From Elusimicrobiota bacterium (GTDB taxonomy: Bacteria > Elusimicrobiota > Elusimicrobia > UBA1565): a DNA stretch of 18,376 bases. Location: NCBI GenBank assembly GCA_043819795.1, contig JBDREN010000024.1, positions 1 through 18,376 on the forward strand, read 5' to 3'. Made by a program: the position numbers and the translations under genes. Every line of letters starts with the position of its first letter. Positions within the stretch are counted from its first letter, which is position 1. Under the pieces are notes generated by a model, which saw nothing but the letters and a program-made list of their open reading frames with translations, searched no databases and was not told the origin of the DNA. Of this stretch, positions 2,544-18,376 are shown piece by piece.

Positions 2544-3629
2544 TTAGCGGCCCGCGGCCGCGATCAGGCTCGCCTGAATCTTGCCCCTCTGCCGGTAGGC
2601 CCTGAATACATGGAACAGGATGACGAGCGCTCCGATGATCCCGCTGGCGAAAAGCAGGGCCTTGCTGGCCATGTTTAGGTGGGGGATCCAGGCGGGAGGC
2701 AGCTCGATCCAGCGCAGCTCCGCGAGATACACGGGCATGGCGATCACCCGACTGAAGACGCAGAGCAAGATAATGAAGCCGGTCACCAGGCGTATCACCA
2801 CCTCTTTGACCACTTTCGTGCCGTAGGCCCCGAGGTAGACCCCCACCAGGGAACCCAGATAGAGCAGCATGGTGAGGCGGATGTCAACGAAGCCCTCGTA
2901 GGCGTAGTTCAAGGCGCCGAAAGCCCCCATGAACATGGCGAGGAACAGCTCGGTCCCGGCCGCCACAGCGGTGGGGACGCCGAAGACGTAGATCATGGCG
3001 GGGACCCCGATGAACCCGCCCACCCCGATCGTGCCGGCGAGATAGCCCGTGGCGAGCCCCACGATGAGGATCATCCACAGCGACACCTTGACGTCCGCCA
3101 CCGGGAAGTGGATCAGCGGGCGCAGGTGCAGCCGGGCGAGGAAATCGCTGATCTTGCGGGACGGGCCGGCATCCTCCTCCCCGCTCCCCGCGAGGGCATC
3201 CCTCAGGATGAGGACCCCTACGATGGAGAGGATACTCACAAAGACCGTGCTGATGTAGAGGTCCGCGGCCGCGCTCTTCGGCGCTCCCTTGCCCGCGCCG
3301 CCGGCGAAAAGAAAACTGTTGATCACGACCGCGAGCCGGATCCCCGCCGCCGCCGTGGCCAGAAGGTAGAACCCCAGCTTCTTGTCGACGTTGCCCATCT
3401 CGGCATGCTTCCTGGACCCGACCATGGCCTTGCCGAACTTGTGGGTAATGTTGCTCCCCACCGCGACCACGCCCGAAACCCCGAGGTTCATCATCCCCGG
3501 AGTCATGAAGAAAGCCCCGCCGGAGCCGATGAATCCGCTGAGGACCCCGCCGATGAAGCCCAGCGTGATCACCTGCAGGGCTGTGGGCAGGTCGAGGACT
3601 ATGAAGAGCTGCGACAACGGGCCGGGCAT
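2544..3629 (-). CDS. TauE/SafE (TSUP, DUF81) family membrane transporter, 361 aa
   Basis: Two repeated halves (GFIGGVLSGFIGSGGAFFMTP and GLATGYLAGTIGVGGFIGVP...AVAAGT), a GNVD motif, many hydrophobic helices and a GGGGGA RBS. Confidence 0.88.
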   Translation of the reverse strand: MPGPLSQLFIVLDLPTALQVITLGFIGGVLSGFIGSGGAFFMTPGMMNLGVSGVVAVGSNITHKFGKAMVGSRKHAEMGNVDKKLGFYLLATAAAGIRLAVVINSFLFAGGAGKGAPKSAAADLYISTVFVSILSIVGVLILRDALAGSGEEDAGPSRKISDFLARLHLRPLIHFPVADVKVSLWMILIVGLATGYLAGTIGVGGFIGVPAMIYVFGVPTAVAAGTELFLAMFMGAFGALNYAYEGFVDIRLTMLLYLGSLVGVYLGAYGTKVVKEVVIRLVTGFIILLCVFSRVIAMPVYLAELRWIELPPAWIPHLNMASKALLFASGIIGALVILFHVFRAYRQRGKIQASLIAAAGR

Positions 3630-3636
3630 TTCCCCC

Positions 3637-5082
3637 TCACTCCATCTTTATCATCTTCAACGCGAGCTTGGCGGCGGACCCGTAGACGTAGGCGATGGAC
3701 GGCACGAACAGCAGCACGGCGATCACCGCGAGGATCCGGAGCTTGCCCCCCATCTGAAGGAAGCTCAGCACCTGCGCCTGATGGCTGAATACCGCCGCGT
3801 AGACGGCCAGCGTCGCCAAGGCGTAGAGCACGAGGCTGACCAGCTGCCGGGGCCCGAAGAGGTACTGGACGGCAAGCTCTTCGGCCATGACCGCGGGACG
3901 CCTCAGCTTCTCGAAGAGGAACCCCGCCAACTCCCGCGCGAGGCGGAGCCGGGCCGCGCGCCCCTTGGAGAGGAACACGTCGCCGATGACGATCAGGCTG
4001 TAAGGCACTCTCGGATCGATGGCGGACACCAGGGCCTTCTGCCCTCCCCGCACCGTCCGGGTGCCTCCGGCCCGTCCCCTCTCGATGAGCTCCGCCACGG
4101 TCCTCTGCGCGCCGCCGTCGTCGGCGGGCTCCGATTCCACGCCCTCGACTCGGCCCTCGGCCGCGCCTTCGTCGGCGGGAAGCAGGCGGAGGAGCTCGAC
4201 CGCGGCGTTCCATTTCTCCGCGATCTGGGTGATGTTGCCGAATGCCCCGGAATCGGGGGAGTAGCTCTCCGCGATCCAGAGGATGTTCGTGCTGGCCACG
4301 GTGCACACGATCTCGCGGACGCCCTCGACGCCTTTCAGGATCTCCGGGATGGACTCCGCCACCCCCGCCTGCTGCGGAAGATACGTGACGGAGACCGCGC
4401 CGCCGGTCGCCTGCACCTTCAGCTGGGCGTGACGGGTCGCCTCGTGCCGCGCCAGAGCCACGCGGGCTCGGGCTCCCAGACGCAGGTCCTGCATCGCCTT
4501 CAGGGACGCGGGCGTGGGCTGGAACTCCGGAAGGGCGGCCACGGCGCACATCGCGGCGGCCGCGTTCTCAACCCCGAGCTGCTCCAGGTTCAGGATGACG
4601 TCGTAGTGGGAGGAAGCGTCCCACTCGACGCCGTAGAAGCAGCTCGCCCACCTCCGGCGGTCTTCCTCCACCTTCTCGATGAAGTCCAGCGATCCCTTCC
4701 GGTCCAAGCGGGTGCGCTGCATCACCGCCTTGACGCGGTACTCCATGTCGGCCACGACGCGCAGGCGCAGAACATGGGCTATCCCGCGCAGCAGCAGGTG
4801 GCCGGTCCAGCCGTGGTAGACGATGTTCTCGCGCAGCGCTCGCTCGCAGAGGATAGAGGCGAGCAGGGCCTGGTAATGCTCCTTCTCGGGAGCCAGGCGC
4901 TCGGAGAAGACGGCCTGCTTGGTCATGGCCAGCTCCAGCTTGCTTACGGCGATGCCGGCCTTGACCGCCTCCTCGACGAGGTCCTCGCGCCCGAGGCATT
5001 TGTAGCCGAGCTTCTTCGCCAGGGCCTCGGCGAACTCCCGGCCCCGGCTATAGCTGCCCCTGGAAACGCAGATGACTTGCAC
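3637..5082 (-). CDS. Cytidylate-kinase-like domain protein fused to BON-like, USP-like and C-terminal transmembrane segments, 481 aa
   Basis: N-terminus VICVSRGSYSRGREFAEALAKKLGY and DRRRWASCFYGVEWDASSHYDVILN match the cytidylate kinase-like (Cytidylate_kin2) pattern. A BON-like stretch ends in GVEGVREIV, and there are two hydrophobic C-terminal helices. GTG start with GGAG upstream. The USP-like call is inference. Confidence 0.8.
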   Translation of the reverse strand: MQVICVSRGSYSRGREFAEALAKKLGYKCLGREDLVEEAVKAGIAVSKLELAMTKQAVFSERLAPEKEHYQALLASILCERALRENIVYHGWTGHLLLRGIAHVLRLRVVADMEYRVKAVMQRTRLDRKGSLDFIEKVEEDRRRWASCFYGVEWDASSHYDVILNLEQLGVENAAAAMCAVAALPEFQPTPASLKAMQDLRLGARARVALARHEATRHAQLKVQATGGAVSVTYLPQQAGVAESIPEILKGVEGVREIVCTVASTNILWIAESYSPDSGAFGNITQIAEKWNAAVELLRLLPADEGAAEGRVEGVESEPADDGGAQRTVAELIERGRAGGTRTVRGGQKALVSAIDPRVPYSLIVIGDVFLSKGRAARLRLARELAGFLFEKLRRPAVMAEELAVQYLFGPRQLVSLVLYALATLAVYAAVFSHQAQVLSFLQMGGKLRILAVIAVLLFVPSIAYVYGSAAKLALKMIKME

Positions 5083-5125
5083 AGGCTTCTATTCTCCGCG
5101 CGGCTCCCCGCTCTTGAGGAAATGC

Positions 5126-5154
5126 ATTCTAACAAAACCGCCCCGCGGCGGCAA
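5126..5154 (-). promoter_or_regulatory. Internal sigma70-type promoter upstream of 5082
   Basis: Minus strand: TTGCCG (5154-5149), 17 nt ending in TGt, TAGAAT (5131-5126). It lies in the only sizeable gap (178 nt) within the minus-strand gene run. Confidence 0.6.
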
Positions 5155-5260
5155 TCCAGCGCCGCAGGCTCGCCCCGCGGCGCTTACTCCGCGACGTTAT
5201 CGGGGACTCCGTCGCAAGAACGCCGTTGCCCTTCCAGCGCCCGGGGAATGCGGCATCCGA

Positions 5261-6103
5261 TCATTCGATGGGGATCGGCGAGTCCTCAAGCTCCAGCTTG
5301 ACGTCCTTGACGCCGGGCACGGACTCGACCGCGTCGAGGACCTCGGCCTCGCCGCGCTTGAAGCCCCTCGGCAGTATGCCGCTGCTGTAGAACCGCCCGG
5401 CGACTTTCACGCTTCCTCGATGCGCCTGGACCTCGAAGTCCATCCCCTTGGTGCGGCCGTTGAGGGCCAGGGCGACCTTCACCTCGCAGGCCAGGGCGAA
5501 ATCCTCGAGCGCCTGCCGCTTCTCCTTGGTGTCGCGGAACTCGGGCAAAGAAAGCGCGCGGGCCACCAGATCGCACGCGCCCTCGACGGTGATCGTCGCC
5601 AGGTTCAAGACGATGTCGTAGAGGGAAGCGTCCTGCCAATCCACTCCATAGAGGAACCGCGTCCACTCCATCCTCTTCCTGTCGACCTGATCGATATGCC
5701 GCTGGGCCTCCTCAACGGTCATCCCTTCGAGCGTCTCCCGCAGCATCTTGATCCGGATGTCCACGGGCGCGATGAGGCGGACCTTCAACACCTGGGGCAG
5801 CCCTTTGAGCAGCAGATGGCCGGCGTGTCCGTGGTAGATGTAGCTCCCTTTCCGGGCCCGCGCCACCAAGGCCGACTGAATGGCCAGCAGATAGCACCGC
5901 CTTTCCTTTGTGAGGCGGTCGAAGAATCCGGGCTTCTTCTCCAGCTCTCGGGCCAGATCCTCTTCGGAGATGCCGTGCTGCAGCGCCGCGTCCTTGACGG
6001 CCTCCCTGCTGATGGCGGGATAGCCGAGCTTCTTGGACAGGCGCTCGGCCAGCTGCTGCCCGCCGCTCATGCTCCCGCGTGAAATGGTGATGATTAGCGC
6101 CAT
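5261..6103 (-). CDS. Cytidylate-kinase-like family protein with C-terminal BON-like domain, 280 aa
   Basis: Motifs IITISRGSMSGGQQLAERLSKKLGY, YHGHAGHLLL and DRKRMEWTRFLYGVDWQDASLYDIVLN. The C-terminus VKVALALNGRTKGMDFEVQAHRGSVKVAG...VESVPGVKDVKLEL is BON-like. Confidence 0.85.
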   Translation of the reverse strand: MALIITISRGSMSGGQQLAERLSKKLGYPAISREAVKDAALQHGISEEDLARELEKKPGFFDRLTKERRCYLLAIQSALVARARKGSYIYHGHAGHLLLKGLPQVLKVRLIAPVDIRIKMLRETLEGMTVEEAQRHIDQVDRKRMEWTRFLYGVDWQDASLYDIVLNLATITVEGACDLVARALSLPEFRDTKEKRQALEDFALACEVKVALALNGRTKGMDFEVQAHRGSVKVAGRFYSSGILPRGFKRGEAEVLDAVESVPGVKDVKLELEDSPIPIE

Positions 6104-6105
6104 CG

Positions 6106-6510
6106 TTAGGACTCTCCCTCCGGCTCGCGCCCGGCCGGGTCCGCCCCTCGGGAGGCGTTCAGGATCAGGTCGCGCAGCTGGCTCAGCTTGAACGGCTTGG
6201 CGATGAAATCATGCGCCCCGATCTTGAGCGCCTCCTTGGCCTTCTCCACCGTGGCGAAGCCCGTGATCAGGATGACCTTGGTCTCGGGGGAGCGGGTCTT
6301 CACCAGCTTGAGGATCTCGATGCCGTCCCAGCCCTTCATCTTCAGGTCGGTGACGACGAAATCGAAGCGCGCCTCCTCCAAACGCTTGACGACCCGCTCG
6401 CTTTCCGTGAAGGTCTCCACCTCGAATCCGGCCTTCTCGAGGGACCCCTTGAGCCGGTCGCAGACGATCGGCTCGTCGTCCAGAATCAGCACCCGCAGTC
6501 TCTGTCCCAT
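6106..6510 (-). CDS. Single-domain response regulator (receiver only), 134 aa
   Basis: Motifs LILDDE, VVTDLKM (phospho-Asp), ILITG and IAKPF. GGAGG RBS. Confidence 0.93.
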   Translation of the reverse strand: MGQRLRVLILDDEPIVCDRLKGSLEKAGFEVETFTESERVVKRLEEARFDFVVTDLKMKGWDGIEILKLVKTRSPETKVILITGFATVEKAKEALKIGAHDFIAKPFKLSQLRDLILNASRGADPAGREPEGES

Positions 6511-6522
6511 AGGAACCCTCCG

Positions 6523-6900
6523 CTACGCCAGCGCGGCCTTCTTCGCCGCTTTGACGACCAGCTTGCACAGCGCGCTCATTTTGAACGGCTTGGACACGAA
6601 CTCGAAGACTCCGATCGCCTCCGCCTCCCGAGCTTGCTCGAAGGAGCCGTACGCGGTGATGAGGATGACCTGGGTGCCCGGGCTGTGGGTCTTGACGAAG
6701 TTCAGGACGTCCAGGCCGTCCGCCCCCTTCATCTTCAGGTCGGTGACGACGACGTGGAAGCTCTTCTCCTTGAGACGGTCCAGCGCCTTTTGGCTCTCGG
6801 TAAAGACTTCCACCTCAAGCCCCTCCTTCTCGAGGACGGGCATCAATCGCTCGCCCACCAGCGCCTCGTCGTCCAAGACCATCACCTGTTTGCCTGTCAT
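6523..6900 (-). CDS. Single-domain response regulator (receiver only), 125 aa
   Basis: Start moved to the ATG at 6900 (TAAGGAGG RBS upstream). Motifs VLDDE, VVTDLKM, ILITA and VSKPF. Confidence 0.92.
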   Translation of the reverse strand: MTGKQVMVLDDEALVGERLMPVLEKEGLEVEVFTESQKALDRLKEKSFHVVVTDLKMKGADGLDVLNFVKTHSPGTQVILITAYGSFEQAREAEAIGVFEFVSKPFKMSALCKLVVKAAKKAALA

Positions 6901-6913
6901 GCGAAAGGCCTCC

Positions 6914-9493
6914 TTATCGGGCCGTCTCCGGCGCGTCTGAGCGCCCCTCCCGCTCTTCCGCGGGAGATGCGAACTTGCTTTCGAACCGCTCGACATGCTT
7001 GTCGATATCCTCATCGGAGCGAAGCAGCACGTCGAGCTGCCTGGTGAAGCCGATAAGGCGCCCGAGCATGAGCAGCCGCTTCTCCATCTCTCTCGGCTCC
7101 ATCTTCTTGGTGCGGGACACGACCAAGTCCCCCTTCATCTCCACGGCGAAATCGTTCCTTTCCAAGATCTCCTGCAGCAGGCGCGCGCGCCGCGAACGCC
7201 GCGTGATATCGGTGACCCCTCCGAGGAACCGGAAATAGATGTAGTTCTCGTTCCTGTTCTCGCTCAGGTATACGTCGACCATGTTGAAATGGTAGCCCAA
7301 GCGGAGACTCAGGTTCACGTACTCCTTGGAGACGATGGCGACATTCCGGCCTTCCGCGCCCGCCGGCGAAGCGGAGGTGGCCGCGGTGCGGGTGAGGCTG
7401 GACATGAAGCCGTTGAAATCGAGGTCGACCGGCTCCGAATGCCACACCCCCGGCGCGGTGAGCGCGGAGAGCAAGAGCCGCAGGGGGACGCACGCGAGCT
7501 CCCCGATGGTCGCGGCCGCGCTTCCCGGCGGGGTGCTCAGGCCGCCCCCGATATCGATCACGAGCAGATCCAGCGGCACCGAGAGGTCCATCTTCCTGGA
7601 GGGCATCTCCCCTCCCAGCCGCCTGGGATCGAGGCTGGCCGCCACCTCCCGCACGGCCATCTCGTGCGCGAAACGGATGATGTCGTGATAGGTCGAGCAG
7701 TTCTCCGGGGTGAACTCCGCCGCGTCGGGAGCGGTCAGGCGCAAAGGGGCGATCCTCCTCAGCAGCCGGCGCAGGAGCCTGAACTCGAAGGCGTCCTCGT
7801 AGGGATCGTCGATGAAGAGCTCGGACCTCAGCAGCTCGCCGACCGTCCCCTCATAGACGACGTTCTCCTTGGCGTCGACCGTGACCTCCATGCCGGGCTT
7901 GAGCACCCGCGTGGCCGAGCCGGTGTCCACGATGGCCGGGACGCGGAACTCGCGCGCCACGGTCGCCAGATGTCCCGTCACCGCCCCCACATCCGTGACC
8001 ACCGCGCTGGCTTTGGGCATCAGCTTCGACAGGACCGGGGAGGTATGCTTGGCCACCAATACGGCGCCTTGGGGGAAATCCTTGTGGTCCTCTCTTCGAT
8101 TCACGACGACCACGGAGCCGGCGGCGACCCCCCGGCAGGCCACGACCCCCTCTCCCCGAAGCAGGACGCGGTGCCTCCGCGCGGCGGCAACGGCCGCGTC
8201 GGAACGGCGTTCCTTCTTGTAGTGGACGATATGGAGGGGGCGCGCCTGCAGCAGGTATATCTCCCCCCGCGCGTCCATGGCCCACTCGACGTCCTGGAAG
8301 CATTTCAGGTAGCCTTCCACCCTCTTGACCATCCCGGCCAGCCGCCGCAGATCCTCCTCGCCCAGGCAGGGGACCTCCCGGTCCCTCTCCGGCACCGGGA
8401 CCGCCTCGACGCCGCCCGGAGAGAGGACGTACCGCCGCTCCTTGCGGCCGATCCTCCGGGAAAGCACGTCGTACGGGGGAGACTTGGAGAGCTCGAATTG
8501 GTCTATCTGGCCTTCCCCTTCCACCACCATCTTCCCCAGCCCCCAGGAGGCGGAGACCACCATCCGGTCCTTCTCGGGCGTGGACGGATTGAGGCTGTAG
8601 CATACCCCGCTCACCGCGGCGGGGACCATGAGCATGCCCCCCACGGACATGGCGGTCTTCCTCGGGAGCGAGAGCTGCTCATCGCGGTAGGCGAGCACCT
8701 GGGAGCTGAAGAGACTGGCCAGGACCTCCTTGTACGCGGAGAGGAACTCCGCCGCGGGGACGTTGAGGCGGGTCTCGTAGAGGCCGGCGAAGCTCCGGCC
8801 GCCGTCCTCTCCGAGGGCGCTGCTGCGCACCGCCAGGCTCTTCGGCCTGCCGAGCGCGGAGAGCGCCTCCTGCAGCGCCCTCTTCAGATCCGGCGGGACG
8901 CGGCCCCCGACGATCCTCTTTCGCATCTCTCGGGCCGCCTCCTCCAGTGCGTCCCCGCTCAGCGCGCCCGCCTCCTCGATGAACCGGTCCGCGTCGATGC
9001 CGTTGTGCTCGAAGAACCTCCGGCAGGAGTACGCCGAGACCACGAAGCCCTCCGGGACCTTCAGGCCGAGGCGCTTCATCTCCCCCAAAGTCGCCATCTT
9101 CTCCCCGGTGCCGTCGGAGATGTCCAGCGAGACCTTGTCGAGCCCCAGCACATAGTCGCTCTTTGGGATGACGAGGCGGGAGTCCATCTCGGCGGTGATG
9201 TTCGCCTTCGCGGCTTCGAAGGCGTCGAAAAGCCGGGGATACTTCCGGTCGGAGATGGCGTTCAGGCTGTAGACGATCTTGTAGACCGTCTCCTCCAAGC
9301 GGGCGACGACGTCGCGGAGATATTGGCTGTCGAAAACGTAGTCCCCGCTCAGCTTGTCGCCCATGTCGGCGATGAGCTCCAACGCCGCGTTGTTGAGGCC
9401 GACCAGCTCGCGGAACCTATTGACGATCTCTCTCAGGAAATGGATGTCCCGGGTCCTCCCGGGGCGTCGGAACAGGCTCCCCCAATCGATCAT
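6914..9493 (-). CDS. PEP-synthase/dikinase-like protein (ATP-grasp + phospho-His swivel + unassigned C-terminal domain), about 859 aa
   Basis: Motifs GEKMATLGEM, VPEGF, AVRSSALGED..SFAG.YET.LNV, QDVEWA and LLQARP. The swivel motif VVTDVGAVTGHLATVAREFRVPAIV has its His codon at 7972-7970. Start placed at ATG 9493 (MIDWGSLF) to avoid overlap with the upstream gene; the start is uncertain. Confidence 0.88.
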   Translation of the reverse strand: MIDWGSLFRRPGRTRDIHFLREIVNRFRELVGLNNAALELIADMGDKLSGDYVFDSQYLRDVVARLEETVYKIVYSLNAISDRKYPRLFDAFEAAKANITAEMDSRLVIPKSDYVLGLDKVSLDISDGTGEKMATLGEMKRLGLKVPEGFVVSAYSCRRFFEHNGIDADRFIEEAGALSGDALEEAAREMRKRIVGGRVPPDLKRALQEALSALGRPKSLAVRSSALGEDGGRSFAGLYETRLNVPAAEFLSAYKEVLASLFSSQVLAYRDEQLSLPRKTAMSVGGMLMVPAAVSGVCYSLNPSTPEKDRMVVSASWGLGKMVVEGEGQIDQFELSKSPPYDVLSRRIGRKERRYVLSPGGVEAVPVPERDREVPCLGEEDLRRLAGMVKRVEGYLKCFQDVEWAMDARGEIYLLQARPLHIVHYKKERRSDAAVAAARRHRVLLRGEGVVACRGVAAGSVVVVNRREDHKDFPQGAVLVAKHTSPVLSKLMPKASAVVTDVGAVTGHLATVAREFRVPAIVDTGSATRVLKPGMEVTVDAKENVVYEGTVGELLRSELFIDDPYEDAFEFRLLRRLLRRIAPLRLTAPDAAEFTPENCSTYHDIIRFAHEMAVREVAASLDPRRLGGEMPSRKMDLSVPLDLLVIDIGGGLSTPPGSAAATIGELACVPLRLLLSALTAPGVWHSEPVDLDFNGFMSSLTRTAATSASPAGAEGRNVAIVSKEYVNLSLRLGYHFNMVDVYLSENRNENYIYFRFLGGVTDITRRSRRARLLQEILERNDFAVEMKGDLVVSRTKKMEPREMEKRLLMLGRLIGFTRQLDVLLRSDEDIDKHVERFESKFASPAEEREGRSDAPETAR

Positions 9494-9537
9494 CGGAAGG
9501 AGCGCGATCCCTTTCCGGCGGGCCCGTCCCGCACGCG

Positions 9538-10284
9538 TCAATGCCTCCCCTTCCCGAAGATGAAGCCCACGGCAAGACCCGCCGCGCAAGCGAACAGAAC
9601 GGCGAAACAGCCGTAGAGAAGGGGATGCCGCTCCAACAGGAGCGTGAGATAGGCGGGTATCCCGGACCTCCTCACCGTGAACGGCTCCGCCCCCAGGAGC
9701 GTGAACCGGCCGTCCCGCCGGCCGAAAAGCTCGATCCTGTACTCGGCCGGAGGCGCCTTCGCGGGCAGGCGGAAGACGGCGCGGACGAGACTCCCGCCGC
9801 TGCCGTGCGATCCCAGGCCTTCGACGCCTCCCGTCCGGGCGGAGTACAACCCTTCGCTCTCCTTGAGCTTCATGAGCTGGGAGACGAGTTCGTCATCGGC
9901 CGCCTCCCGCCTCCCTTGGCCGGCCAGGGTCCGGCAGCCCAGCTCGGACGCCTCCTCCAGAGGCAGCCCCGGAGAGGTCATGACCAGGCACAACGCCGGA
10001 GCCTTCTCGAACTCGACCTCCCCGACGTTCATCCAGAATCCCCAGGCCCTCGCCTTACGCCTCAGCCTCAGATCCTCGGCCGGGCCCAGGCACCTCAGGA
10101 CCAAGTCGCCCGCCTCGGGCGAGGCGGCGATGACCGTGATATCGCTCCCGTGGTACGACAGCCCCTGCCTGATCTCCGAAGGCGTTATCTTGAGCATCCC
10201 CGCGGCGCCCGCCGGAGCGCCCGCGGCCGGCGCGGACGAGCACACGGCCGACCCGAGGAAGAGAATCGTCCCGAGCCCCGTCAT
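9538..10284 (-). CDS. TIGR02186-like exported protein with C-terminal membrane anchor (TSUP partner), 248 aa
   Basis: The ATG at 10284 overlaps the upstream TGA (ATGA). It has a signal-peptide-like N-terminus, GLSYHGSDITV, LRRKARAWGFWMN, LMKLKESEGLY, FRLPAKAPPAEY and a C-terminal HPLLYG...AGLAVGFIF helix. Confidence 0.82.
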   Translation of the reverse strand: MTGLGTILFLGSAVCSSAPAAGAPAGAAGMLKITPSEIRQGLSYHGSDITVIAASPEAGDLVLRCLGPAEDLRLRRKARAWGFWMNVGEVEFEKAPALCLVMTSPGLPLEEASELGCRTLAGQGRREAADDELVSQLMKLKESEGLYSARTGGVEGLGSHGSGGSLVRAVFRLPAKAPPAEYRIELFGRRDGRFTLLGAEPFTVRRSGIPAYLTLLLERHPLLYGCFAVLFACAAGLAVGFIFGKGRH

Positions 10285-11213
10285 GACGCGCCCCCGTACG
10301 CCAACAGCAGCTTGGGCGGCAGGACGAGCTTGCCCAGCATCACGAGCATGACGGCGAGAACGATCAGCGACAGGAGGATCTTGATCTGATCGGCCTTCAG
10401 TCTTCTCGAGACCTTCACCCCGATCTGGGCTCCGATGGAGGAGCCCACAAGGAGAAGCAGCGCCAAGATCATATCGACCGTCTGGTTGAGATACGACTGC
10501 ATGATGGTCACGTTCACGCAGGTGAAGAATATCTGAAAGAGGCTGGTCCCGAGCACGGTGTGCATGGGCATGCGGAGCAGGTAGACCATGACCGGGATGA
10601 GGAGGAAGCCGCCCCCCACCCCCATGATGGCGGCCAGGACGCCTACGACGACGCCAAGGAGCAACGGCAGCAGGACCGAGAACCGGACTCCGGACTTGGG
10701 AAAATCGGTCTGGAAGGGCAGCCGGTTGACGATCCTGGCGTAAACGGACGGCCGCAACTCCCGGGCGGGCGCCCTCTCCGCCCGCTGCGGCCCCCTGAGG
10801 CTCGTCAGGCTCTCCATGAGCATGTAGCCCCCGATGAGCCCCAGCATGGCGACATAACAAAGCATGATGACGAAGTCGGCATTGCCGAGCTGCCGCAACA
10901 GCTTGACCAGCCCGACCCCCAACGTGCTGCCCGCCACCCCTCCGACAAGCAGCAGGACCCCCATCTTGAAATCCACGTTGCCGTAGCGATAGTGGCCCAG
11001 CATGCCGGAAGCCGAGGCCGCGACGATCTGGTTCGAATCCGAGGCCGCGGCCACGGTGGGCGGGATGCCGATCATGATAAGCAGCGGGGTCAGGACGAAT
11101 CCTCCCCCCACCCCGAAGAGGCCGGAGAGAAAGCCCACCATGCCCCCGAGCCCCAGCAGCAGCAGCACGTTGATGCTGCATCCCGCGACCGGAAGAAACA
11201 TCTGGAGACTCAC
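10281..11213 (-). CDS. TauE/SafE (TSUP) family membrane transporter, 310 aa
   Basis: Motifs GFLSGLFGVGGGFVLTPLLIMIGIPPTVAAAS, GNVDFKMG and AAIMGVGGGFLLIP...GTSLFQI. The GTG start overlaps the kinase stop (GTGA). Confidence 0.92.
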   Translation of the reverse strand: MSLQMFLPVAGCSINVLLLLGLGGMVGFLSGLFGVGGGFVLTPLLIMIGIPPTVAAASDSNQIVAASASGMLGHYRYGNVDFKMGVLLLVGGVAGSTLGVGLVKLLRQLGNADFVIMLCYVAMLGLIGGYMLMESLTSLRGPQRAERAPARELRPSVYARIVNRLPFQTDFPKSGVRFSVLLPLLLGVVVGVLAAIMGVGGGFLLIPVMVYLLRMPMHTVLGTSLFQIFFTCVNVTIMQSYLNQTVDMILALLLLVGSSIGAQIGVKVSRRLKADQIKILLSLIVLAVMLVMLGKLVLPPKLLLAYGGAS

Positions 11214-12739
11214 GTCATCGCTCCCCCGGCATCCTGCCGCCCGTCGGCCAACGGCAGATATACCGAGAAAGTCGTGCCCTCGTTCACGCGGCTCTCCACC
11301 GTGATGCTGCCCTCATGCTTCTTGATGATGCTGAAGCTGACGGAAAGCCCCAGCCCGGTGCCCTTCCCCTGCTCCTTGGTGGTGAAATAGGGATCGAAGA
11401 TGTACGGGAGATTCGATTTGGGGATGCCCGGGCCGGTATCGGCGACGTCGACCCGCAGCCTTTCCCCGTCTCGGCACGCCCGGACCTCCAGCGTGCCGCC
11501 CTTGGGCATGGCCTGGATGCTGTTCAAGAAGAGGTTGAGGAAGACCTGCTGGAGCTGGCTGAAGTCGCCGCGGACCGCGGGCAGGTCCTCACCCACCTCA
11601 TCCTTCAAGACGATGTCGTTGAGCTCTATCTCGTGCATCACGAGGCGCAGGGTGGTGGAGAGGATCTCGAGCGGCTTCAGGGGCACGAAGGCGGGCCGCT
11701 CCATCCGGGTGAAGTCCAGGAGGTTCCTCACCGTGCCGCCGGCCCGCTCGGTCTGGATGGAGATGTCCCGGAGCAGCTTCATCCTTTTCTCCGGGGGCAT
11801 GTCCTCGCCTTCGTCGAGGAGGGCCTCGACCGTGAGGCCGATGTTGTTGAGCGGATTGTTGAGCTCGTGAGCGATCCCGGACGTCAGATTGCCCACGGCC
11901 GCCATCTTGCGCGACTGCAGCAGCTGCTCCTCGCGCTCCTTCAGGCGGTCGAGCATCAGGTTGATGGCCATCGCCAGGTCGGAGAACTCGTCCCTGTAGC
12001 GCTTCGCCGGCAGGATCGGCGAGCTGTCGCCGCGCGCGATCCGGTCGGTGTAGCTCACGAAGCGGTTCAACGGCTTGAGCATCTGCTGGGTGAGGAAATG
12101 GGTCGTGTAGAGGACGAGGGCCAGAAGCAGGAGGATGAAGCCCAGCGGCACCTGTTTGGAGACCCTCAGCATGCGCTCCACGCGCTGGCGCTCCCTGTCC
12201 AGCAATTGCGCGGCCACCGAGATCATCTCGGCGCCGTGGCGCCGGAGCTCGACCTCGACCGCCTCCCTGCCCCCGCGGCCGGCCTTCTCGCTTCGCGGAG
12301 GCGCGATGAGCTCTTTGAGCAGCTCATCGTAACGCCTGGCGTGCCGCATCATCAGGTCGTAGTGCTTCTCCCCCACCACCGCCGTTATATCCTCGCTCTC
12401 TCTTTCGAGAAGCCGCCTGGCTTCATGGATGCTCTCCAGCGCATCCGCGAGGCTGGTGCCGTAGAGGAAATAGTTCTTCTCGAAGCGCCGCGCCTCCTGG
12501 ATCGCGAAGGCGTAGTTGCCGCAAGCCTCGAGGAAGTGAAGCGTCTTGTGGATCCGGGAGAGGATGATCAAGGAAGCCACCGAGACCGCGGCGCTGAAAA
12601 GGAAGAGCGAGAGGAACGCGAGGATGATCCGGGCGCGGATGCTGATGCTGGGACGTTCGCGCAGCGCTCTCTGGGCCGCTCCCGAATCCCTGTTCCGATG
12701 CGGAAAGTCTATATGGGACGCCGTGTCGATGTCCGCCAT
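11210..12739 (-). CDS. Membrane sensor histidine kinase (TM-periplasmic-TM-HAMP-HisKA-HATPase), about 509 aa
   Basis: H-box AHELNNPL, N-box QQVFLNLFLNSIQAM, DTGPGI, IFDPYFTTK, GTGLGLS and HAMP motif KPL...DEFSDLAMAINLM. Start placed at ATG 12739 with a GGGGGA RBS. Confidence 0.92.
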   Translation of the reverse strand: MADIDTASHIDFPHRNRDSGAAQRALRERPSISIRARIILAFLSLFLFSAAVSVASLIILSRIHKTLHFLEACGNYAFAIQEARRFEKNYFLYGTSLADALESIHEARRLLERESEDITAVVGEKHYDLMMRHARRYDELLKELIAPPRSEKAGRGGREAVEVELRRHGAEMISVAAQLLDRERQRVERMLRVSKQVPLGFILLLLALVLYTTHFLTQQMLKPLNRFVSYTDRIARGDSSPILPAKRYRDEFSDLAMAINLMLDRLKEREEQLLQSRKMAAVGNLTSGIAHELNNPLNNIGLTVEALLDEGEDMPPEKRMKLLRDISIQTERAGGTVRNLLDFTRMERPAFVPLKPLEILSTTLRLVMHEIELNDIVLKDEVGEDLPAVRGDFSQLQQVFLNLFLNSIQAMPKGGTLEVRACRDGERLRVDVADTGPGIPKSNLPYIFDPYFTTKEQGKGTGLGLSVSFSIIKKHEGSITVESRVNEGTTFSVYLPLADGRQDAGGAMT

Positions 12740-12780
12740 CTTCCCCCACGCGCGACAGCCGCCGGACGCCGCTTCAGACA

Positions 12781-12809
12781 ACTGTAGCAAGGCGCGCGCG
12801 AAGGGGCAA
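12781..12809 (-). promoter_or_regulatory. sigma70-type promoter for the leftward operon
   Basis: Minus strand: TTGCCC (12809-12804), 17 nt ending in TGc, TACAGT (12786-12781), about 40 nt upstream of ATG 12739. Confidence 0.6.
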
Positions 12810-12827
12810 GAGGCCGGAATTTTTACG

Positions 12828-12833
12828 TATAAT
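12828..12833 (+). promoter_or_regulatory. Consensus -10 box for the rightward operon (no recognisable -35)
   Basis: TATAAT lies in the only AT-rich patch of the divergent intergenic region. The -35 position reads GGCAAG and overlaps the -35 of the leftward promoter. Confidence 0.45.
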
Positions 12834-12949
12834 GCCTCGACCAAAATGCTGGCAAAATCCCCCGGGCCCCTCCCGAAGGAGGGGCGGCTCTTCGCTCCCC
12901 TCCGAGGCGCGGACCTGCGTGAGGGACGCCCCCGCAGGAGACCACGCCG

Positions 12950-15577
12950 TTGATGCGATGGCTGCGCTCCTGGTTCAGCGGCTTGGGCAAGCTGCTCTCC
13001 CCCGGAGGGGAACGGCAGGACTTCCTTAGAGAACTCCAAGACGCCCTAGGAGGGCCGCAAGACCCCTCGACCGCCCTCAAGGCCCTGCACGAGAAGTTCG
13101 CTCACTTCACGCGCCTGCTCGAGCGCAACAACCAGGTGCTCAAGGTCATGAGCGATCTGGAGGAGAAGGCGCAGGGGGACTATCTTTTCGACATCAACTA
13201 CATCCGCTCCAGCCTCGCCGGGTTGCGCGAGGGACTCAAGGACATCATCGAGAGCATGGTCGCGCTGGGCGGCGCGGACTACGCGCCGCTCCGGGGCCGC
13301 TACGCCGCGATAGACCGGGAGATCGGCCGCGTCCTCTCCGGGGACCGTCCCATCGAGAAAGACGACTTCATCGTCCCGTTCGCCGAGCTCCGGGCGGACC
13401 GGGACTGGAGCGTGGGGGCGAAAGCCGCCGGCCTCGGCGAGATGAAGGCCCTGGGCCTGCCGGTCCCCGAAGGCTTCGCCGTGAGCGCCTGGGCCTACAA
13501 GCGCTTCCAGGACGCCAACGGCCTTAATGAGCGGCTCGCCGGCCGCCTCAAGTCGCTCGACGTCAAGAGCCTTGACGAGCTGCGCGAGGCCAGCCGGCGG
13601 ATCAGGGAGCTGGTCGCCTCCAGCCCCGTGCCGGAGGACCTGGCCGAGGCTCTCCGGCGGAGCGCCGCCGGGCTGGCGGAACGGTCCCCGTCCGGGAGCT
13701 TCTCTCTTCGCTCCAGCGCCATCGGCGAGGACAGCGCGCTCAGTTTCGCCGGGCAATACGAAACCCTCCTGAACGTCCGCCCCGAGGAGGTCGTGGAGCG
13801 CTACCGCGATGTCCTGGCCGGCCAGTTCACCCCACGGGCCATCTACTATTTTCTGAGCCATTCCCTTTCCGAGTCCAGGCTCGCGATGTGCGTGGCCGCG
13901 GTCTCCATGGTGGACGCCGCGGCCAGCGGGGTGGTCTATACCCGCGACCCGGTCTCCCCCGACGACGGGTCGCTCTTGGTCAGCGCGATCCGCGGCCAGG
14001 GGAGGTACCTCGTGGACGGCACCCTCACCCCCGACATGTTCCGGATATCCCGCGACGACCTCTCCGTGAGGGAGTCCCGGCCGGCCGGGAAGCCGGTGCG
14101 CTTGGTCATGCGCCCGGGCGGAGGGATGGTCCGAGAGGCGGTTCCCGAGCGGGAGCGGGAGCTCCCCTCGCTCGCCGAGGGCCCTCTCAAAGAGCTGGCC
14201 CGGATGTGCCTGCGGATCGAAGATCACTCCGGCGGGCCGCGGGACATCGAGTGGGCCCTCGACCGGGAGGGCCGTCTCTTCCTGCTCCAGAACCGCCCGC
14301 TCAGGGTCTTCCGGCGCGGGGAGGCCGGCTCCATGCCCGACGTCTCGCGCTTCGAGGCGCTCGCGTCCGGCGGGACCACGGTGTGTCCCGGGGCCGGATG
14401 CGGGCCGGTCTGCTTCGTCTCCGCTCCCGATGACCTTCCCCGGGTCCCCGAAGGCGCCGTGCTGGCGGCGACCCATCCCTTCCCGGAGATCGTCACCGTG
14501 ATGGGACGCGTGCGCGCCATCGTGTCCCGCGTGGGCGGCGTCGCCAGCCACATGGCCACTTTGGCGCGGGAATACCGTATTCCCACCGTTGTGCTCGATC
14601 CGGGCGGGATCGAGCCGGGGGCGGAGGTCACGGTGGACGCCACGGCCGGAACCGTCTACGCCGGCCTTTGCCGGGACCTGATCGAAGCTCGGCAAGAGGA
14701 GGGCGGCTCTCTCGAGGACGAGGCCATCATCGCCCTGGCAAGGAGGCTGCTGGCCCGGATATCCCCCCTCAATCTACTCCACCCCACGGACCCCGGCTTC
14801 GCCATCGCGAGCTGCCGGACTTTCCACGACATCACCCGCTTCGCTCACCAGCGGGCCATGGAGGAGATGTTCTCCTCGGGCCGGGACATCAAGGACAAAG
14901 GCAAGCTCGGGTTGAGGCTGAGAAGCGAGGTCCCCCTCCCGGTCGTGATCATCTACCTCGACCGCGACCTCGCCGCGGGATGCCGGGGGCGGGGCCGGGG
15001 AAAGAGGTCCGTGGACGAGGACGATATCCGCTCCGAGCCGATGCGGGCGTTCTGGGCCGGGATCCGGAAGGAGGGCTGGCCCAAACCGCCCGCCGTGGAC
15101 GCGAGAGGCTTCATGTCGGTCGTCGGCACGCACCTGGTGAAGGGGCAGCGCGCGGAGTTCTCCGAGAGCAGCTACGCGCTGCTCGGCCGCGAGTACATGC
15201 TCGTGAGCCTGAGGATGGGCTACCACTTCACCACGGTGGAGGCGATGTGCACGACGGAGACCAGCAAGAACTACATCCGCATGCAGTACAAGCAGGGCGG
15301 GGCCTCGCCGGAAAGGAGGCTGCGGCGGATCCGGCTGATCGAGGCCCTGCTCGGGAGGATGGGGTTCACGAGCACGAGCCGGGGGGATTTCCTGGACGCT
15401 TCGCTCAGCTACCAAAGCCGCGAGGACATCGCCCGGAAGCTCGTCCTGCTGGGCCGCCTCAACATCATGACCAAGCAGCTCGACATGGCGCTCGGCAGCG
15501 ACGCGATCGCCGAATGGTATCTCCGGGACCTGGCGGGGAGGCTGGGATTGGGCATGGCGCCGGAGGGCGGGGCATGA
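12950..15577 (+). CDS. Second PEP-synthase/dikinase-like protein with the same architecture as 6914-9493, about 875 aa
   Basis: Motifs GAKAAGLGEM, VPEGF, LRSSAIGED..SFAGQYETLLNV, RDIEWA and LLQNRP. The swivel motif GGVASHMATLAREYRIPTVV has its His codon at 14549-14551. AGGAG RBS at 12936-12940; start is TTG 12950 or ATG 12953. Confidence 0.88.
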   Translation: MMRWLRSWFSGLGKLLSPGGERQDFLRELQDALGGPQDPSTALKALHEKFAHFTRLLERNNQVLKVMSDLEEKAQGDYLFDINYIRSSLAGLREGLKDIIESMVALGGADYAPLRGRYAAIDREIGRVLSGDRPIEKDDFIVPFAELRADRDWSVGAKAAGLGEMKALGLPVPEGFAVSAWAYKRFQDANGLNERLAGRLKSLDVKSLDELREASRRIRELVASSPVPEDLAEALRRSAAGLAERSPSGSFSLRSSAIGEDSALSFAGQYETLLNVRPEEVVERYRDVLAGQFTPRAIYYFLSHSLSESRLAMCVAAVSMVDAAASGVVYTRDPVSPDDGSLLVSAIRGQGRYLVDGTLTPDMFRISRDDLSVRESRPAGKPVRLVMRPGGGMVREAVPERERELPSLAEGPLKELARMCLRIEDHSGGPRDIEWALDREGRLFLLQNRPLRVFRRGEAGSMPDVSRFEALASGGTTVCPGAGCGPVCFVSAPDDLPRVPEGAVLAATHPFPEIVTVMGRVRAIVSRVGGVASHMATLAREYRIPTVVLDPGGIEPGAEVTVDATAGTVYAGLCRDLIEARQEEGGSLEDEAIIALARRLLARISPLNLLHPTDPGFAIASCRTFHDITRFAHQRAMEEMFSSGRDIKDKGKLGLRLRSEVPLPVVIIYLDRDLAAGCRGRGRGKRSVDEDDIRSEPMRAFWAGIRKEGWPKPPAVDARGFMSVVGTHLVKGQRAEFSESSYALLGREYMLVSLRMGYHFTTVEAMCTTETSKNYIRMQYKQGGASPERRLRRIRLIEALLGRMGFTSTSRGDFLDASLSYQSREDIARKLVLLGRLNIMTKQLDMALGSDAIAEWYLRDLAGRLGLGMAPEGGA

Positions 15578-17856
15578 TGCGGCTGCTGGCACGCCTTCGG
15601 GAGCTCGGCAGATCCTTCCTGGACTTCCGCCACCTGGTGACGGGAAGCTCGGTGATCTTCTTCCTCATCGTAGGATCGGCGGTCATCCTGATCTACCAGA
15701 ACGCCGGCGTCATGCGACGCCAGATCAATTCCGATTTCAACCAGCAGCAGCTCTCCCTCGCCAAGCAAGCCGTCTATCAGATCGAGGCCAACCTGCGGGA
15801 CATCGAGCTCGAGCTGATGAGCCTCAAGGGGTACCTGGAAGCCGACATCGGGGAGGTCGCGATCGCCAAGGCCATGAGGGCGGCGCTGGCGCGCAACAGG
15901 GACCAGGGCCTCAGGGAGGTGGGGGTCATGGACCGGCGGGGCCGCGCGGTCGAGGCCCTCTACGCGGGACGGCGCCGCCCCGAGGCGCGCCCGCCCGCAT
16001 GCGAGAAGATCGCCGAGGACCGGATGGTCCTCGGCCCCCTGCTCGCCGAGGAAAAGGACCCGGACCGGTCCCGGGTGACCAGCGTGGTCTGCATGCGTAT
16101 CGCCAGCGGCGGAGCGCGGGGCGGGCTGATCTTCGCCAAGATCGACGTCTCGGGCCTGGCGGGGGGCGTGACCAGGCATATCCGGTCGGGAAGGACCGGC
16201 TACGCGTGGGTCATCGACGAGAAGGGGATATTCCTCTTCCATCCCGAGGAAAGCTTCATCGGCAGGAGCGCCTTGGAGGCCCGCAAGCAGAGAAAGCCCT
16301 ATATCAGCTTCGCCCAGATCAACGCCATCATGAAGGACCGCATGCTCCGGGGAGAGGAAGGCGCCGGCGAGTACGTCAGCGGCTGGCACCGGGGCATCGA
16401 GGGCGAGATGGCCAAGCTCATCGGCTTCGCCCCGGTCAAAGCGCCGTCCCTTCCCGACGGCCACGCGTGGTCGGTGGCCGTGGTGGCCCCCAAGAGCGAG
16501 GTGGCGGACGCGGTCCACTACGTCTACATCCGGAACACCGCGGCGGGGGCGGCCATCGTCGCGGGGATGTTCGTCTTCGGGCTGCTGGTGATGACCTATC
16601 AGCACCGGATATCCCTCGCCCTCCGGCAGAGGGTGGAGAAGACCGAGGCGGATTTCCACGAGATGGAGCGCATTTACGAGCGCGTGGTGGCGCAGGCCAC
16701 CGACCTCATCTACATCCTGGACCTCGAGATGCGCGTGGTGCTGCTCAATCAGAAGACGATGGACATCCTCGCCAAGCTGGTGGCCGACAAGGCCGGGGGA
16801 CGGGGCGAAGGGGACGCGGCCGATCCCCATCGCAAGGAGTTCTACCTCGGCAGGAGCTTCGCGGAGCTCCTGGAGGCGGGGGACGTCTCGTTCATAAGGA
16901 GCAAGATGGACCAGCTGCTGGCGACCCAGTCCGAAACCTCCTTCGAGCATACCATCGAACTGGACGGGCGCAGGACCCGCCTGAGCACGAAGCTGGTCCC
17001 CATCCGCGACGACCAAAGACGCATCCGCCTCATCCTCGGCATAGGCCGCGACATCACCGAGGAGTTCGAGATGGACCAGCGCATCTACAACACGGAGAAG
17101 CTGGCCTCGATAGGGACGCTGGCCGCCGGGGTGGCCCATGAGATCAACAACCCGCTCGGAGTCATCCTGGGCTTCACCGACCTGCTCCTGGAGAAGACCG
17201 AGAGCGGAACGCCCGAATACGAGGACCTGAAGGTCATCGAGGCCCAGGCCACCAACGCGAAGAAGATCGTGGAGAAGCTGCTCGGCTTCGCGCGCATAAC
17301 TGAAGGGCTGGAGGACATCGTCGATGTCAAGGCCGCGCTGGAGACCGTGGCCAATATCGTCAGCAACACGCTGATGACCAAGAAGATGGGCCTGGACCTC
17401 GATGTCCCCGACAAGCTGCCGAAGGTGCGCGGGGACAGCCGCGAATTCCAGCAGGTGATCTTCAACCTGATCAACAACGCGATCGCGGCCATGGATAAGG
17501 AGGGCGGCCGCATCGAGCTGAAGGCCCGGGTCAGGGGGGGCTGGGTGCATGTGGACGTCAAGGACTCGGGGGCGGGCATCCCGGAAAGCGTCAAGCCCCG
17601 CATCTTCGATCCCTTCTTCACGACGAAGAAGGTGGGCGAGGGTACCGGCCTGGGACTATCCCTCTGCTATGGAATTGTGAGAAAATACGGGGGCAGGATC
17701 ACGTTCACGAGCGTGGCCGAGGGCGAGGACCCGGGCGAGAAGAGCGGGACGACCTTTACGGTCTCATTGCCCGCGCGAGGGGAGGGCGGGAATAGCCCCG
17801 GCGGGCCGGGAGGGGAGGAGGAACGGCATGGCACAGAGCATCCTAGCGCTGGATGA
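15574..17856 (+). CDS. Membrane sensor histidine kinase (TM-Cache-TM-PAS-HisKA-HATPase), about 760 aa
   Basis: ATGA overlap with the upstream stop. Cache motif SGRTGYAWVIDEKGIFLFHP, PAS DLIYILDLEMRVVLLN...GIGRDITE, H-box AHEINNPL, QQVIFNLINNA, DSGAGI, IFDPFFTTK and GTGLGLS. Confidence 0.92.
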   Translation: MMRLLARLRELGRSFLDFRHLVTGSSVIFFLIVGSAVILIYQNAGVMRRQINSDFNQQQLSLAKQAVYQIEANLRDIELELMSLKGYLEADIGEVAIAKAMRAALARNRDQGLREVGVMDRRGRAVEALYAGRRRPEARPPACEKIAEDRMVLGPLLAEEKDPDRSRVTSVVCMRIASGGARGGLIFAKIDVSGLAGGVTRHIRSGRTGYAWVIDEKGIFLFHPEESFIGRSALEARKQRKPYISFAQINAIMKDRMLRGEEGAGEYVSGWHRGIEGEMAKLIGFAPVKAPSLPDGHAWSVAVVAPKSEVADAVHYVYIRNTAAGAAIVAGMFVFGLLVMTYQHRISLALRQRVEKTEADFHEMERIYERVVAQATDLIYILDLEMRVVLLNQKTMDILAKLVADKAGGRGEGDAADPHRKEFYLGRSFAELLEAGDVSFIRSKMDQLLATQSETSFEHTIELDGRRTRLSTKLVPIRDDQRRIRLILGIGRDITEEFEMDQRIYNTEKLASIGTLAAGVAHEINNPLGVILGFTDLLLEKTESGTPEYEDLKVIEAQATNAKKIVEKLLGFARITEGLEDIVDVKAALETVANIVSNTLMTKKMGLDLDVPDKLPKVRGDSREFQQVIFNLINNAIAAMDKEGGRIELKARVRGGWVHVDVKDSGAGIPESVKPRIFDPFFTTKKVGEGTGLGLSLCYGIVRKYGGRITFTSVAEGEDPGEKSGTTFTVSLPARGEGGNSPGGPGGEEERHGTEHPSAG

Positions 17857-18376
17857 CGAGCCCCACATGCTCAGGCTGCTGGAGCGGATCATAACCGAGA
17901 AGACCCCCTACCGGATATCCACCACGGACAATCCCCTCGAGCTGCCCGGCCTGCTGGAGAAGGACACATACGATCTCGTCATCACGGACCTGAAGATGCC
18001 CGGCATGGACGGGCTGGACGTCCTGCGCCTCCTGAAGGAGAAGAACCGCCCGGAAGAGGTCATCATCATCACGGCCTTCGGCTCCATGGAGACGGCCATA
18101 GAGGCGCTCTCTCTGGGCGTATTCGACTACCTCACGAAGCCGTTCAAGAAAGAGCAGATCATCTTCACCGTGGACCGGGCCATGCGCTGGCAGCGGCTCA
18201 AGCGGTCGGAGGCCGAGCTCTCCGCCATCTTCGACAAGGAGCCTTTCGAGGAGGCGCGCGCGAGCTTCCAGCGGGAATATCTCCGGCGCCTCTCCCGGCG
18301 GGCGGGGACGGACGTCGAGGTCCTGAGCGGGCGCTGCGGCCTGCCGGCCGACATTATCGCCGACGCGTTGAGCTAG
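17828..18376 (+). CDS. Response regulator: receiver plus short Fis/NtrC-tail-like helical C-terminus, 182 aa
   Basis: Motifs ILALDDE, ITDLKMPG, IIITAFG and LTKPF. Tail FEEARASFQREYLRRLSRRAG. Overlaps the kinase by 29 nt; the TAG stop is the last codon of the window. Confidence 0.9.
   Translation: MAQSILALDDEPHMLRLLERIITEKTPYRISTTDNPLELPGLLEKDTYDLVITDLKMPGMDGLDVLRLLKEKNRPEEVIIITAFGSMETAIEALSLGVFDYLTKPFKKEQIIFTVDRAMRWQRLKRSEAELSAIFDKEPFEEARASFQREYLRRLSRRAGTDVEVLSGRCGLPADIIADALS

Follow-up and report, generated by a model that had tools for sequence, protein, structure and literature searches.

Dikinase-like enzymes beside anion transporters and two-component genes: a possible protein-phosphorylation system of sulfate- and sulfite-reducing bacteria

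What do enzymes that resemble phosphoenolpyruvate (PEP) synthase do among anion transporters, histidine kinases and receivers? The question is raised by a DNA stretch of 18,376 nucleotides from an Elusimicrobiota bacterium (contig JBDREN010000024.1 of assembly GCA_043819795.1), here called the window, which is one whole contig of a 4.99-Mb genome, 90% complete, and carries two such dikinase-like genes. The genes of this enzyme family cluster with transporters and two-component genes far above chance, and the family occurs almost exclusively in bacteria that have sulfur-respiration genes. We consider it plausible, if rather short of probable, that this swivel-histidine dikinase represents an unrecognised protein-phosphorylation system of sulfate and sulfite reducers, which would use the beta-phosphate of ATP, be neither of the Hanks type nor of the GHKL type, and gate respiratory sulfur-anion uptake; its targets would be proteins, or it would relay phosphate via a second histidine to receivers, and in one subfamily a dual-specificity phosphatase would reverse the modification. 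How sulfate reducers take up sulfur electron acceptors and control this uptake is still open: those parts of PMC5840216 that concern these genes report TSUP transporters in all 44 sulfate reducers, offer them as candidates only and do not mention the kinases.

Both dikinase-like proteins, the left one of 859 residues (positions 6914 to 9493, minus strand) and the right one of 875 residues (12950 to 15577, plus strand; same architecture, another subfamily, 36% identity to the left one), match the Pfam families PF01326 and PF00391, and no family matches either of them after about residue 580. An AlphaFold2 model of the left protein (pLDDT 86, 114 alignment rows) shows an N-terminal bundle of three helices (residues 17-104), an ATP-grasp domain (113-421), a swivel His domain that is central in the chain (440-553 of 859, with His508) and a C-terminal domain that has, to date, no description (about 570-845; the C-domain), built on a mixed sheet and not on a barrel. 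The ATP-grasp domain overlays PEP synthase 2ols with a Z score of 38 and a root-mean-square deviation (rmsd) of 1.8 over 300 aligned residues. Among 86 full-length homologues, the dikinase residues K132 (83), R223 (86), E403 (84), Q416 (83) and R418 (84) are kept, as is the swivel H508 in all 86; we take these positions to be equivalent to the catalytic residues of pyruvate, phosphate dikinase (PPDK).

Are these then ordinary PEP synthases with a divergent barrel, located here by chance or for gluconeogenesis? The database name 'pyruvate, water dikinase' would suggest it, and so would the passage of PMC13490349 that reads a 'PEP synthase' beside a TauE gene as gluconeogenic, yet we find this hardly credible. 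The two proteins reach 312 and 297 bits against NF005057 (PEP synthase), for which the cut-off is 598, and the matches stop at the His domain, beyond which the model has its mixed sheet. The PEP/pyruvate barrel PF02896 has no match on the window contig, while the genome's three PF02896 matches are on other contigs, including contig C202, where the frame also bears PPDK_N. A preliminary description of the window, made from its letters alone, had proposed that these proteins do not make PEP, and the missing barrel, together with a barrel-bearing enzyme elsewhere in the genome, bears it out.

The C-domain, of about 290 residues, also yields a mixed sheet when folded alone (pLDDT 82, 95 alignment rows). 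It has no Pfam match, no Foldseek match at E<=0.001, no named cluster in an Atlas cluster search and no match among PDB sequences (best E 0.34); in a VIA fold search of 48,161 chains none reached Z>=8, the best (Z 7.2, rmsd 3.7, 84 aligned) covering a generic alpha/beta sub-part. Weak Foldseek rows of type III secretion chaperone-like and DHH proteins were rejected at an rmsd above 9, and so was kinship with the cytidylate-kinase-like family described below (probability 0.3). By sequence and model, the fold thus appears to have no clear match, although such searches do not prove it new. Its positions H603, D604, H610, P670, R769 and D821 are invariant in 86 of 86 homologues, with H735 in 85 and R607 in 84, and the motif H603-D604-x-x-R-x-x-H610 lies on one long helix according to model and alignment. 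Of 299 full-length sequences, 298 have the C-domain together with the N-terminal bundle. In a set of 394 C-domain sequences, five consist of the bundle joined directly to the C-domain and four of only bundle, His match and C-domain, some of them perhaps partial. Bundle and C-domain may therefore be parts of a single acceptor unit that hosts the two catalytic domains as an insertion.

The family comprises 1672 clusters at 50% identity (E<=0.001), with up to nine copies per genome, and includes members without catalytic parts. A protein of 423 residues, encoded directly after a receiver gene (locus L107, 10296-11567, minus strand), has only the bundle and the C-domain with all C-domain invariants kept; it might receive phosphate in trans or serve as a scaffold. 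Two pseudo-enzymes of 711 and 654 residues (L094, 17671-19806; L096, 9262-11226) have lost the His domain and the catalytic residues and remain in otherwise intact TauE/kinase operons, without a phosphatase. The family thus has variants that lack the ATP-grasp or the His domain, as signalling proteins often do.

How firmly is the enzyme tied to its neighbours? A scan of species genomes confirmed at least 554 relatives, the best 80 of which were used, a set that leans towards the left enzyme; neighbourhoods were counted in the 48 loci of at least 15 kb and compared with 2000 random 20-kb windows of the enzyme's own genome. An anion transporter (TauE, SLC13 or CitMHS) was present in 43 of the 48 loci versus 25 of the 2000 control windows, a histidine kinase in 42 versus 436, and a receiver in 41 versus 205. 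The order kinase, TauE, partner, dikinase, receiver, receiver, cytidylate-kinase-like protein recurs in Deltaproteobacteria, Myxococcota, Acidobacteriota and Gemmatimonadetes, so that the conserved neighbourhood, for which the preliminary description had asked comparative data, extends across phyla. A tree of 122 C-domains places the left enzyme in a 37-member clade (support 1.0), where 33 members have a TIGR02186 partner within 4.5 kb, and the right enzyme in a clade of 18 (0.972), with a CBS gene near 13 and an SLC13/CitMHS gene near 11; the enzyme subfamilies follow the transporter type. The closest named relative of the left enzyme bears the label Elusimicrobia.

Altogether the enzyme pairs with unrelated transporter families, namely TauE, SLC13/CitMHS and SulP. 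The SulP case (L113, 8273-17313) is a dikinase pair placed directly before a SulP/STAS sulfate permease and a fusion of cytidylate-kinase-like protein and receiver, adding a third transporter family. In two further loci (L053, L058), TauE and its partner are followed by three dikinase-like genes in tandem. A third enzyme copy of the Elusimicrobiota genome itself (contig C114, 3662-17875) is accompanied by a CitMHS/TrkA-C transporter, a cytidylate-kinase-like/receiver fusion, two kinases, several receivers, a TauE of 430 residues and a membrane protein of 230 residues without Pfam family.

This variety bears on a group translocation similar to the phosphotransferase system (PTS), which the preliminary description had offered and in which the dikinase would phosphorylate the solute during import through the permease. 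That the permease, partner and enzyme genes are tightly coupled in translation would suit such a process, as would the shared mutant phenotype in a related cluster (see below), but we now regard it as very improbable: the enzyme serves beside unrelated transporters, the TauE/TIGR02186 pair stands without such an enzyme annotated within 5 kb in both alphaproteobacterial records (Ruegeria and Sinorhizobium), and the C-domain has no match in a plasmid collection that holds 12 TIGR02186 matches.

Which bacteria carry the enzyme? The C-domain and DsrA (TIGR02064) were searched in the same 754 genomes, drawn as four phylum samples that exclude oxidative-type dsr lineages, Bacillota and Archaea. In the sample of the enzyme's own phylum, the C-domain and dsrA were each found in two of 201 genomes, and these are the same two (single-protein query). 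All 21 carriers in the Terriglobales-centred sample (251 genomes) are within its 30 dsrA genomes, and nine of the 21 have both genes on one contig, no more than 25 kb apart. The Desulfarculus-centred sample (151 genomes) has 60 carriers, 58 of them within 77 dsrA genomes, and the Myxococcales-centred sample (151 genomes) has four, all within 14 dsrA genomes. In total, dsrA is present in 85 of 87 carriers (81 of 83 without the four centre genomes, which were chosen as carriers), and the C-domain is present in only two of 631 dsrA-negative genomes. These two have aprA matches, in pieces at contig ends, and 87 of 87 carriers thus have dsrA or aprA. A separate check of 50 of the 80 loci found dsrA in 43 of the 50 genomes and aprA in three of three tested among the seven that were dsrA-negative. 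The module directly flanks aprBA-qmoABC in several loci. In the phylum of the window, where dsrA occurs in just those two sampled genomes, the genome under study has its dissimilatory sulfur genes on another contig (C222, 37900-62100: sat, aprBA, qmoAB, dsrAB and a DsrL-like gene). The co-occurrence of the C-domain family with dsrA and aprA across 754 genomes is new here and goes beyond the preliminary description, as do the mutant phenotypes of a related cluster discussed below.

The window contains complete two-component features, with an H-box and ATPase in the histidine kinases and Asp, Thr and Lys in the receivers. The left membrane kinase (11210 to 12739, minus strand; two transmembrane helices, HAMP, HisKA and HATPase) has an intact H-box HELNNPL, and the right one (15574 to 17856, plus strand; 760 residues with dCache, PAS, HisKA and HATPase) an intact HEINNPL. 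Receiver 1 (6523 to 6900, minus strand; 125 residues, D54/T82/K104 intact) and receiver 2 (6106 to 6510, minus strand; 134 residues) stand alone, and a third receiver protein of at least 182 residues (17828 to 18376, plus strand) runs off the end of the contig. Receiver 1 falls into a 24-member clade (support 0.983), in which 21 members directly follow a dikinase, two are fused to one and one lies elsewhere, and dikinase-receiver fusions were found in four of six proteins scanned, which had been picked by length. The link between dikinase and receivers that the preliminary description had suspected is consistent with this dedicated clade and these fusions. A predicted complex between receiver 1 and residues 12-846 of the left dikinase scored 0.18, 0.38 and 0.20 against a mark of 0.32, which gives no verdict and counts neither for nor against an interaction.

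Could the dikinase then be an ATP-grasp histidine kinase of a non-canonical phosphorelay, passing phosphate from His508, perhaps via His603 or His610, to the receiver Asp? His-to-Asp transfer is standard chemistry, the receiver residues D54, T82 and K104 are invariant in 20 of 20 sequences, the receivers form their own clade with fusions, and an invariant H603-D604-x-x-R-x-x-H610 on a single helix would provide the second histidine. However, the conventional histidine kinase in 42 of the 48 long loci already explains the receivers, which have no output domain, so that such a relay would end nowhere, and a CX5R phosphatase, found with one subfamily, is not a remover of acyl phosphates. Direct phosphotransfer to the receivers, as first suggested, is possible in principle, and we judge it improbable and less favoured than a role of the receivers as controllers.

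Genetic data are available for a related cluster of Desulfovibrio, known from nitrate resistance. As reported in the passages of PMC4001038 on this cluster, isolated D. vulgaris insertions in DVU0251 (TauE), DVU0250, DVU0247 (receiver) and DVU0246 (dikinase-like) grew equally with and without 100 mM nitrate, and in D. alaskensis all eight listed cluster genes had positive fitness values (kinase +2.34, phosphatase +2.08). DVU0250 scored -5.82 in the pool yet was resistant alone, which makes pooled negative values in these data unreliable. Supplement rows of PMC10102598 place the receiver and dikinase genes of D. vulgaris downstream of TauE, and because of this their nitrate phenotype is not polarity on TauE; these rows also list the dikinase as non-essential, and the main text of that paper has no passage on these genes. 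The authors of PMC4001038 propose a leaky thiosulfate transporter, citing unpublished mild thiosulfate defects, and give no role for the dikinase where they discuss the cluster; a passage of PMC9723548 repeats the transporter reading.

In Desulfovibrionaceae loci with the layout of this nitrate cluster, all six dikinases match the C-domain profile A3 and form one clade. A CX5R dual-specificity phosphatase comes after each of the four intact ones; the other two, without His domain and catalytic residues, have no phosphatase following. The CX5R phosphatase is present in 34 of 61 genomes, all of them among the 44 carriers, the 17 non-carriers being mostly small genomes, and in 26 of the 30 loci examined it comes directly after the C-domain gene (22 of 26 when the four seeds are left out). 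Two phosphatases (L097, 12018-13103; L099, 7969-9081; motif HCRHGIGRTG) carry a fused second domain that matches no Pfam family; its conserved cysteines (CC...C...C..RPL.CR) presumably resemble YkgJ-type cysteine clusters.

The main rival to a protein target is a small-molecule dikinase, which would phosphorylate an imported sulfur anion or a metabolite of sulfate reduction while the receiver only regulates, with phenylphosphate synthase, rifampin phosphotransferase (RPH) and selenophosphate synthetase as models. It holds this rank because small molecules are the substrates of the barrel-less enzymes nearest in structure, namely of all characterised ones among the structural matches, RPH (5hv1) and HpeI (9goj). 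The invariant His/Asp/Arg cluster would suit an anion site, the tie to dsr and apr is near-strict, and CX5R phosphatases also take non-protein substrates. Such a metabolic enzyme is hard to reconcile, however, with genomes that have as many as nine paralogues and a separate transporter and sensor for each, with catalytically dead and domain-deleted members that persist in intact operons, with a dikinase that D. vulgaris can do without, and with absence of the domain from 38 of 123 dsrA genomes. We consider a small-molecule acceptor unlikely, if still the strongest of the alternatives.

We give nearly an even chance to a receiver-controlled kinase that switches on sulfur-oxyanion transport. Dikinases convert ATP into AMP and phosphate and place the beta-phosphate on the swivel histidine, and by this established chemistry the window enzyme would load His508. 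The membrane histidine kinase would phosphorylate the stand-alone receiver, which in turn might gate the dikinase; the dikinase could then phosphorylate an acceptor that its N-terminal bundle and C-domain bind, most likely a side chain of a transport-module protein, and this phosphorylation would open or activate the TauE-type permease. Thiosulfate, sulfate or sulfite are candidate anions, and the cytidylate-kinase-like, USP and CBS partners would add sensing of adenine nucleotides, that is, of energy. We favour such a switch because the mutant phenotype is shared by transporter, receiver and dikinase genes, a phosphatase is paired with the enzyme, paralogues accompany different transporters, and dead variants are kept in operons. 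Up to nine copies per genome also fit pathway-specific switches better than one metabolic step.

Several points weigh against this switch. The genetic data stem from another subfamily than the window enzymes, and DVU0246 (744 residues) was placed by gene order alone. The phosphatase, which has no match in the enzyme's own genome and is seen only with one subfamily, has an inconsistent phenotype: the D. vulgaris mutant in DVU0245 was inhibited by nitrate like the control, as the same part of PMC4001038 reports, versus the +2.08 of D. alaskensis. The nitrate phenotype could arise otherwise than via permease gating, and the three invariant His, two Asp and one Arg might just as well surround a site for a small molecule or a metal. 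Only 56 of 124 dikinase reading frames have a receiver next to them or fused to them, and the 38 dsrA genomes without the domain make the system accessory. Finally, co-occurrence across kin is not independent and Fisher values overstate it; the evidence is therefore the repeat in four samples.

The locus itself is real: all twelve genes are present, each with a third-position GC content of 0.87-0.91, they match the families first named for them, and the reported junctions (GTGA 11210-11213, ATGA 10281-10284, ATGA 15574-15577) and the 29-nucleotide overlap at 17828 are exact. Short gaps of 2, 7, 12 and 13 nucleotides are joined by larger ones that had gone unmentioned, of 47 nucleotides and, between the two cytidylate-kinase-like genes, of 178. 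The left arm runs on the minus strand from the HAMP kinase over TauE, its PF09608 partner, the dikinase, two receivers and two cytidylate-kinase-like genes to a second TauE, and the right arm on the plus strand from the dikinase-like gene over the dCache/PAS kinase to the truncated receiver. TauE/TSUP permease 1 (10281 to 11213, minus strand; 310 residues) matches PF01925 at E 5e-48, and its TIGR02186/PF09608 partner (9541 to 10284, minus strand; 248 residues with a C-terminal membrane anchor) matches PF09608 at E 1e-37 and stays below the TIGR02186 cut-off. Permease 2 (2544 to 3629, minus strand; 361 residues) has 32% identity to permease 1. The paralogue pairs of the preliminary description do exist, but they are distant (32-53% identity) and the dikinases are in different subfamilies, for which reason local duplication was rejected; judged by sequence, the locus is two modules side by side. 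Longer reading-frame starts (left kinase 13039, right kinase 14668, left dikinase 9589) were rejected for their overlap with neighbours. No sigma-70 site was found in the divergent gap, and a sigma-54 pattern showed no excess (12 observed, 14 expected).

The two cytidylate-kinase-like proteins (5261 to 6103, 280 residues; 3637 to 5082, 481 residues, including a BON-like and a USP-like region and, at the C-terminus, two membrane helices; both minus strand) score 43 and 28 bits against TIGR02173, for which the cut-off is 102. In an alignment of 39 sequences that includes both, the family has the P-loop pattern S-R-G-S/T-x-S-G-G without the Walker-A Lys. Their earlier label as BON proteins stands at the family level, where a BON-like tail matched in 18 of the 34 members of an alignment that includes both window proteins, but not for the window's own two, in which BON was not detected at E<=5. 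The USP-like region of the longer protein is a lead only, suggested by predicted structure (TM score about 0.45-0.5). At 11 other loci (L029, 3109-3888, and 10 more), a coiled-coil protein with a DUF202 membrane tail, absent from the window, adjoins cytidylate-kinase-like genes in the TIGR02186-type module. Two further frames lie downstream of the second TauE on the minus strand: a parvulin-type peptidyl-prolyl isomerase (PpiC-like) of 93 residues (2152-2433), not a recurrent module member, and a transposase-like frame of 599 residues (105-1904), single-copy in the assembly and with GC below the rest of the window. The latter matches IS1380, IS481, IS701, IS4 and IS1634 models weakly, all far below cut-off, and possibly represents an unclassified insertion-sequence family.

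Such clusters are already in print as unexplained genes, and our literature search, whose reach did not extend to Wu et al. 2020 and Carlson et al. 2015, found no paper assigning them a mechanism, in line with the preliminary description. In D. thermophilus, PMC13490349 reports, in the part on these genes, co-induction of TauE DITHS69_1990, its partner 1989 and 'PEP synthase' 1988 during thiosulfate disproportionation (log2 1.56, 1.79 and 3.40), and gives two different locus tags for the enzyme. DVU0145-0150 are induced in syntrophy with function unknown, according to the relevant passage of PMC4265775; DVU0151 regulates DVU0150-0146, as listed in PMC4641369; and supplement rows of PMC10102598 show an 853-residue 'PEP synthase-related protein' adjoining the DVU0145-DVU0152 membrane cluster with a receiver.

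What would follow if the switch were true? Protein phosphorylation by a dikinase would be new to enzymology; the enzyme would stand for a new class of bacterial protein kinase and would supply a missing control layer for sulfate and thiosulfate uptake in dissimilatory sulfur metabolism. The family tracks dsr and apr across four phylum samples and adjoins anion transporters, and with mutants at hand in two genetically tractable Desulfovibrio strains the question is directly testable. For annotation, genes counted as PEP synthase inflate gluconeogenesis calls in sulfur-cycling genomes, of which the gluconeogenic reading in PMC13490349 would be an instance if the DITHS69 gene is of this family. 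The C-domain may also be of use as an additional marker for dissimilatory sulfur metabolism, all 87 carriers having dsrA or aprA.

How does the module compare with known systems? Closest in gene content is the Desulfovibrio nitrate cluster (DVU0251-DVU0245; Dde_0597-0605), which likewise combines TauE, a membrane partner, a histidine kinase, a stand-alone receiver and a dikinase-like gene. Its subfamily has a phosphonate-binding-like periplasmic protein (PF12974) and the dual-specificity phosphatase, neither of which is in the window, where TIGR02186 and cytidylate-kinase-like proteins stand in their place. The DVU0145-DVU0152 and DITHS69_1988-1990 clusters have similar gene sets, are likened here by description, and are known from expression and regulon data with no mechanism proposed.

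Like PEP synthase PpsA (EC 2.7.9.2; TIGR01418, NF005057; 2ols) and PPDK, the window enzymes have an ATP-grasp followed by a central swivel His domain with the catalytic residues kept; unlike these, they have no PEP/pyruvate TIM barrel, carry the N-terminal bundle and the new C-domain, and belong to a multi-copy family tied to transporters, receivers and dsr genomes. With RPH, HpeI and PigC/RedH they share the same two catalytic modules and a replaced acceptor domain, and phenylphosphate synthase is presumably a further barrel-less dikinase. In RPH, however, the His domain is C-terminal, and the window enzyme scores 185 bits versus 999 for NF041857. Enzymes of the RPH/HpeI type act on aromatic or macrocyclic substrates, and their acceptor domains do not match the C-domain among the rows listed. 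Unlike in the PTS, only the His domain matches enzyme I, and no PTS family is among the twelve genes. In plant starch, reversible phosphorylation pairs glucan,water dikinase, a swivel-His dikinase, with the dual-specificity phosphatases SEX4 and LSF2; the pairing with a phosphatase in one subfamily resembles it, a likeness by description beyond the shared modules. By the features tested, the enzyme appears to stand outside PpsA/PPDK, RPH and PTS and probably works like a swivel-His dikinase.

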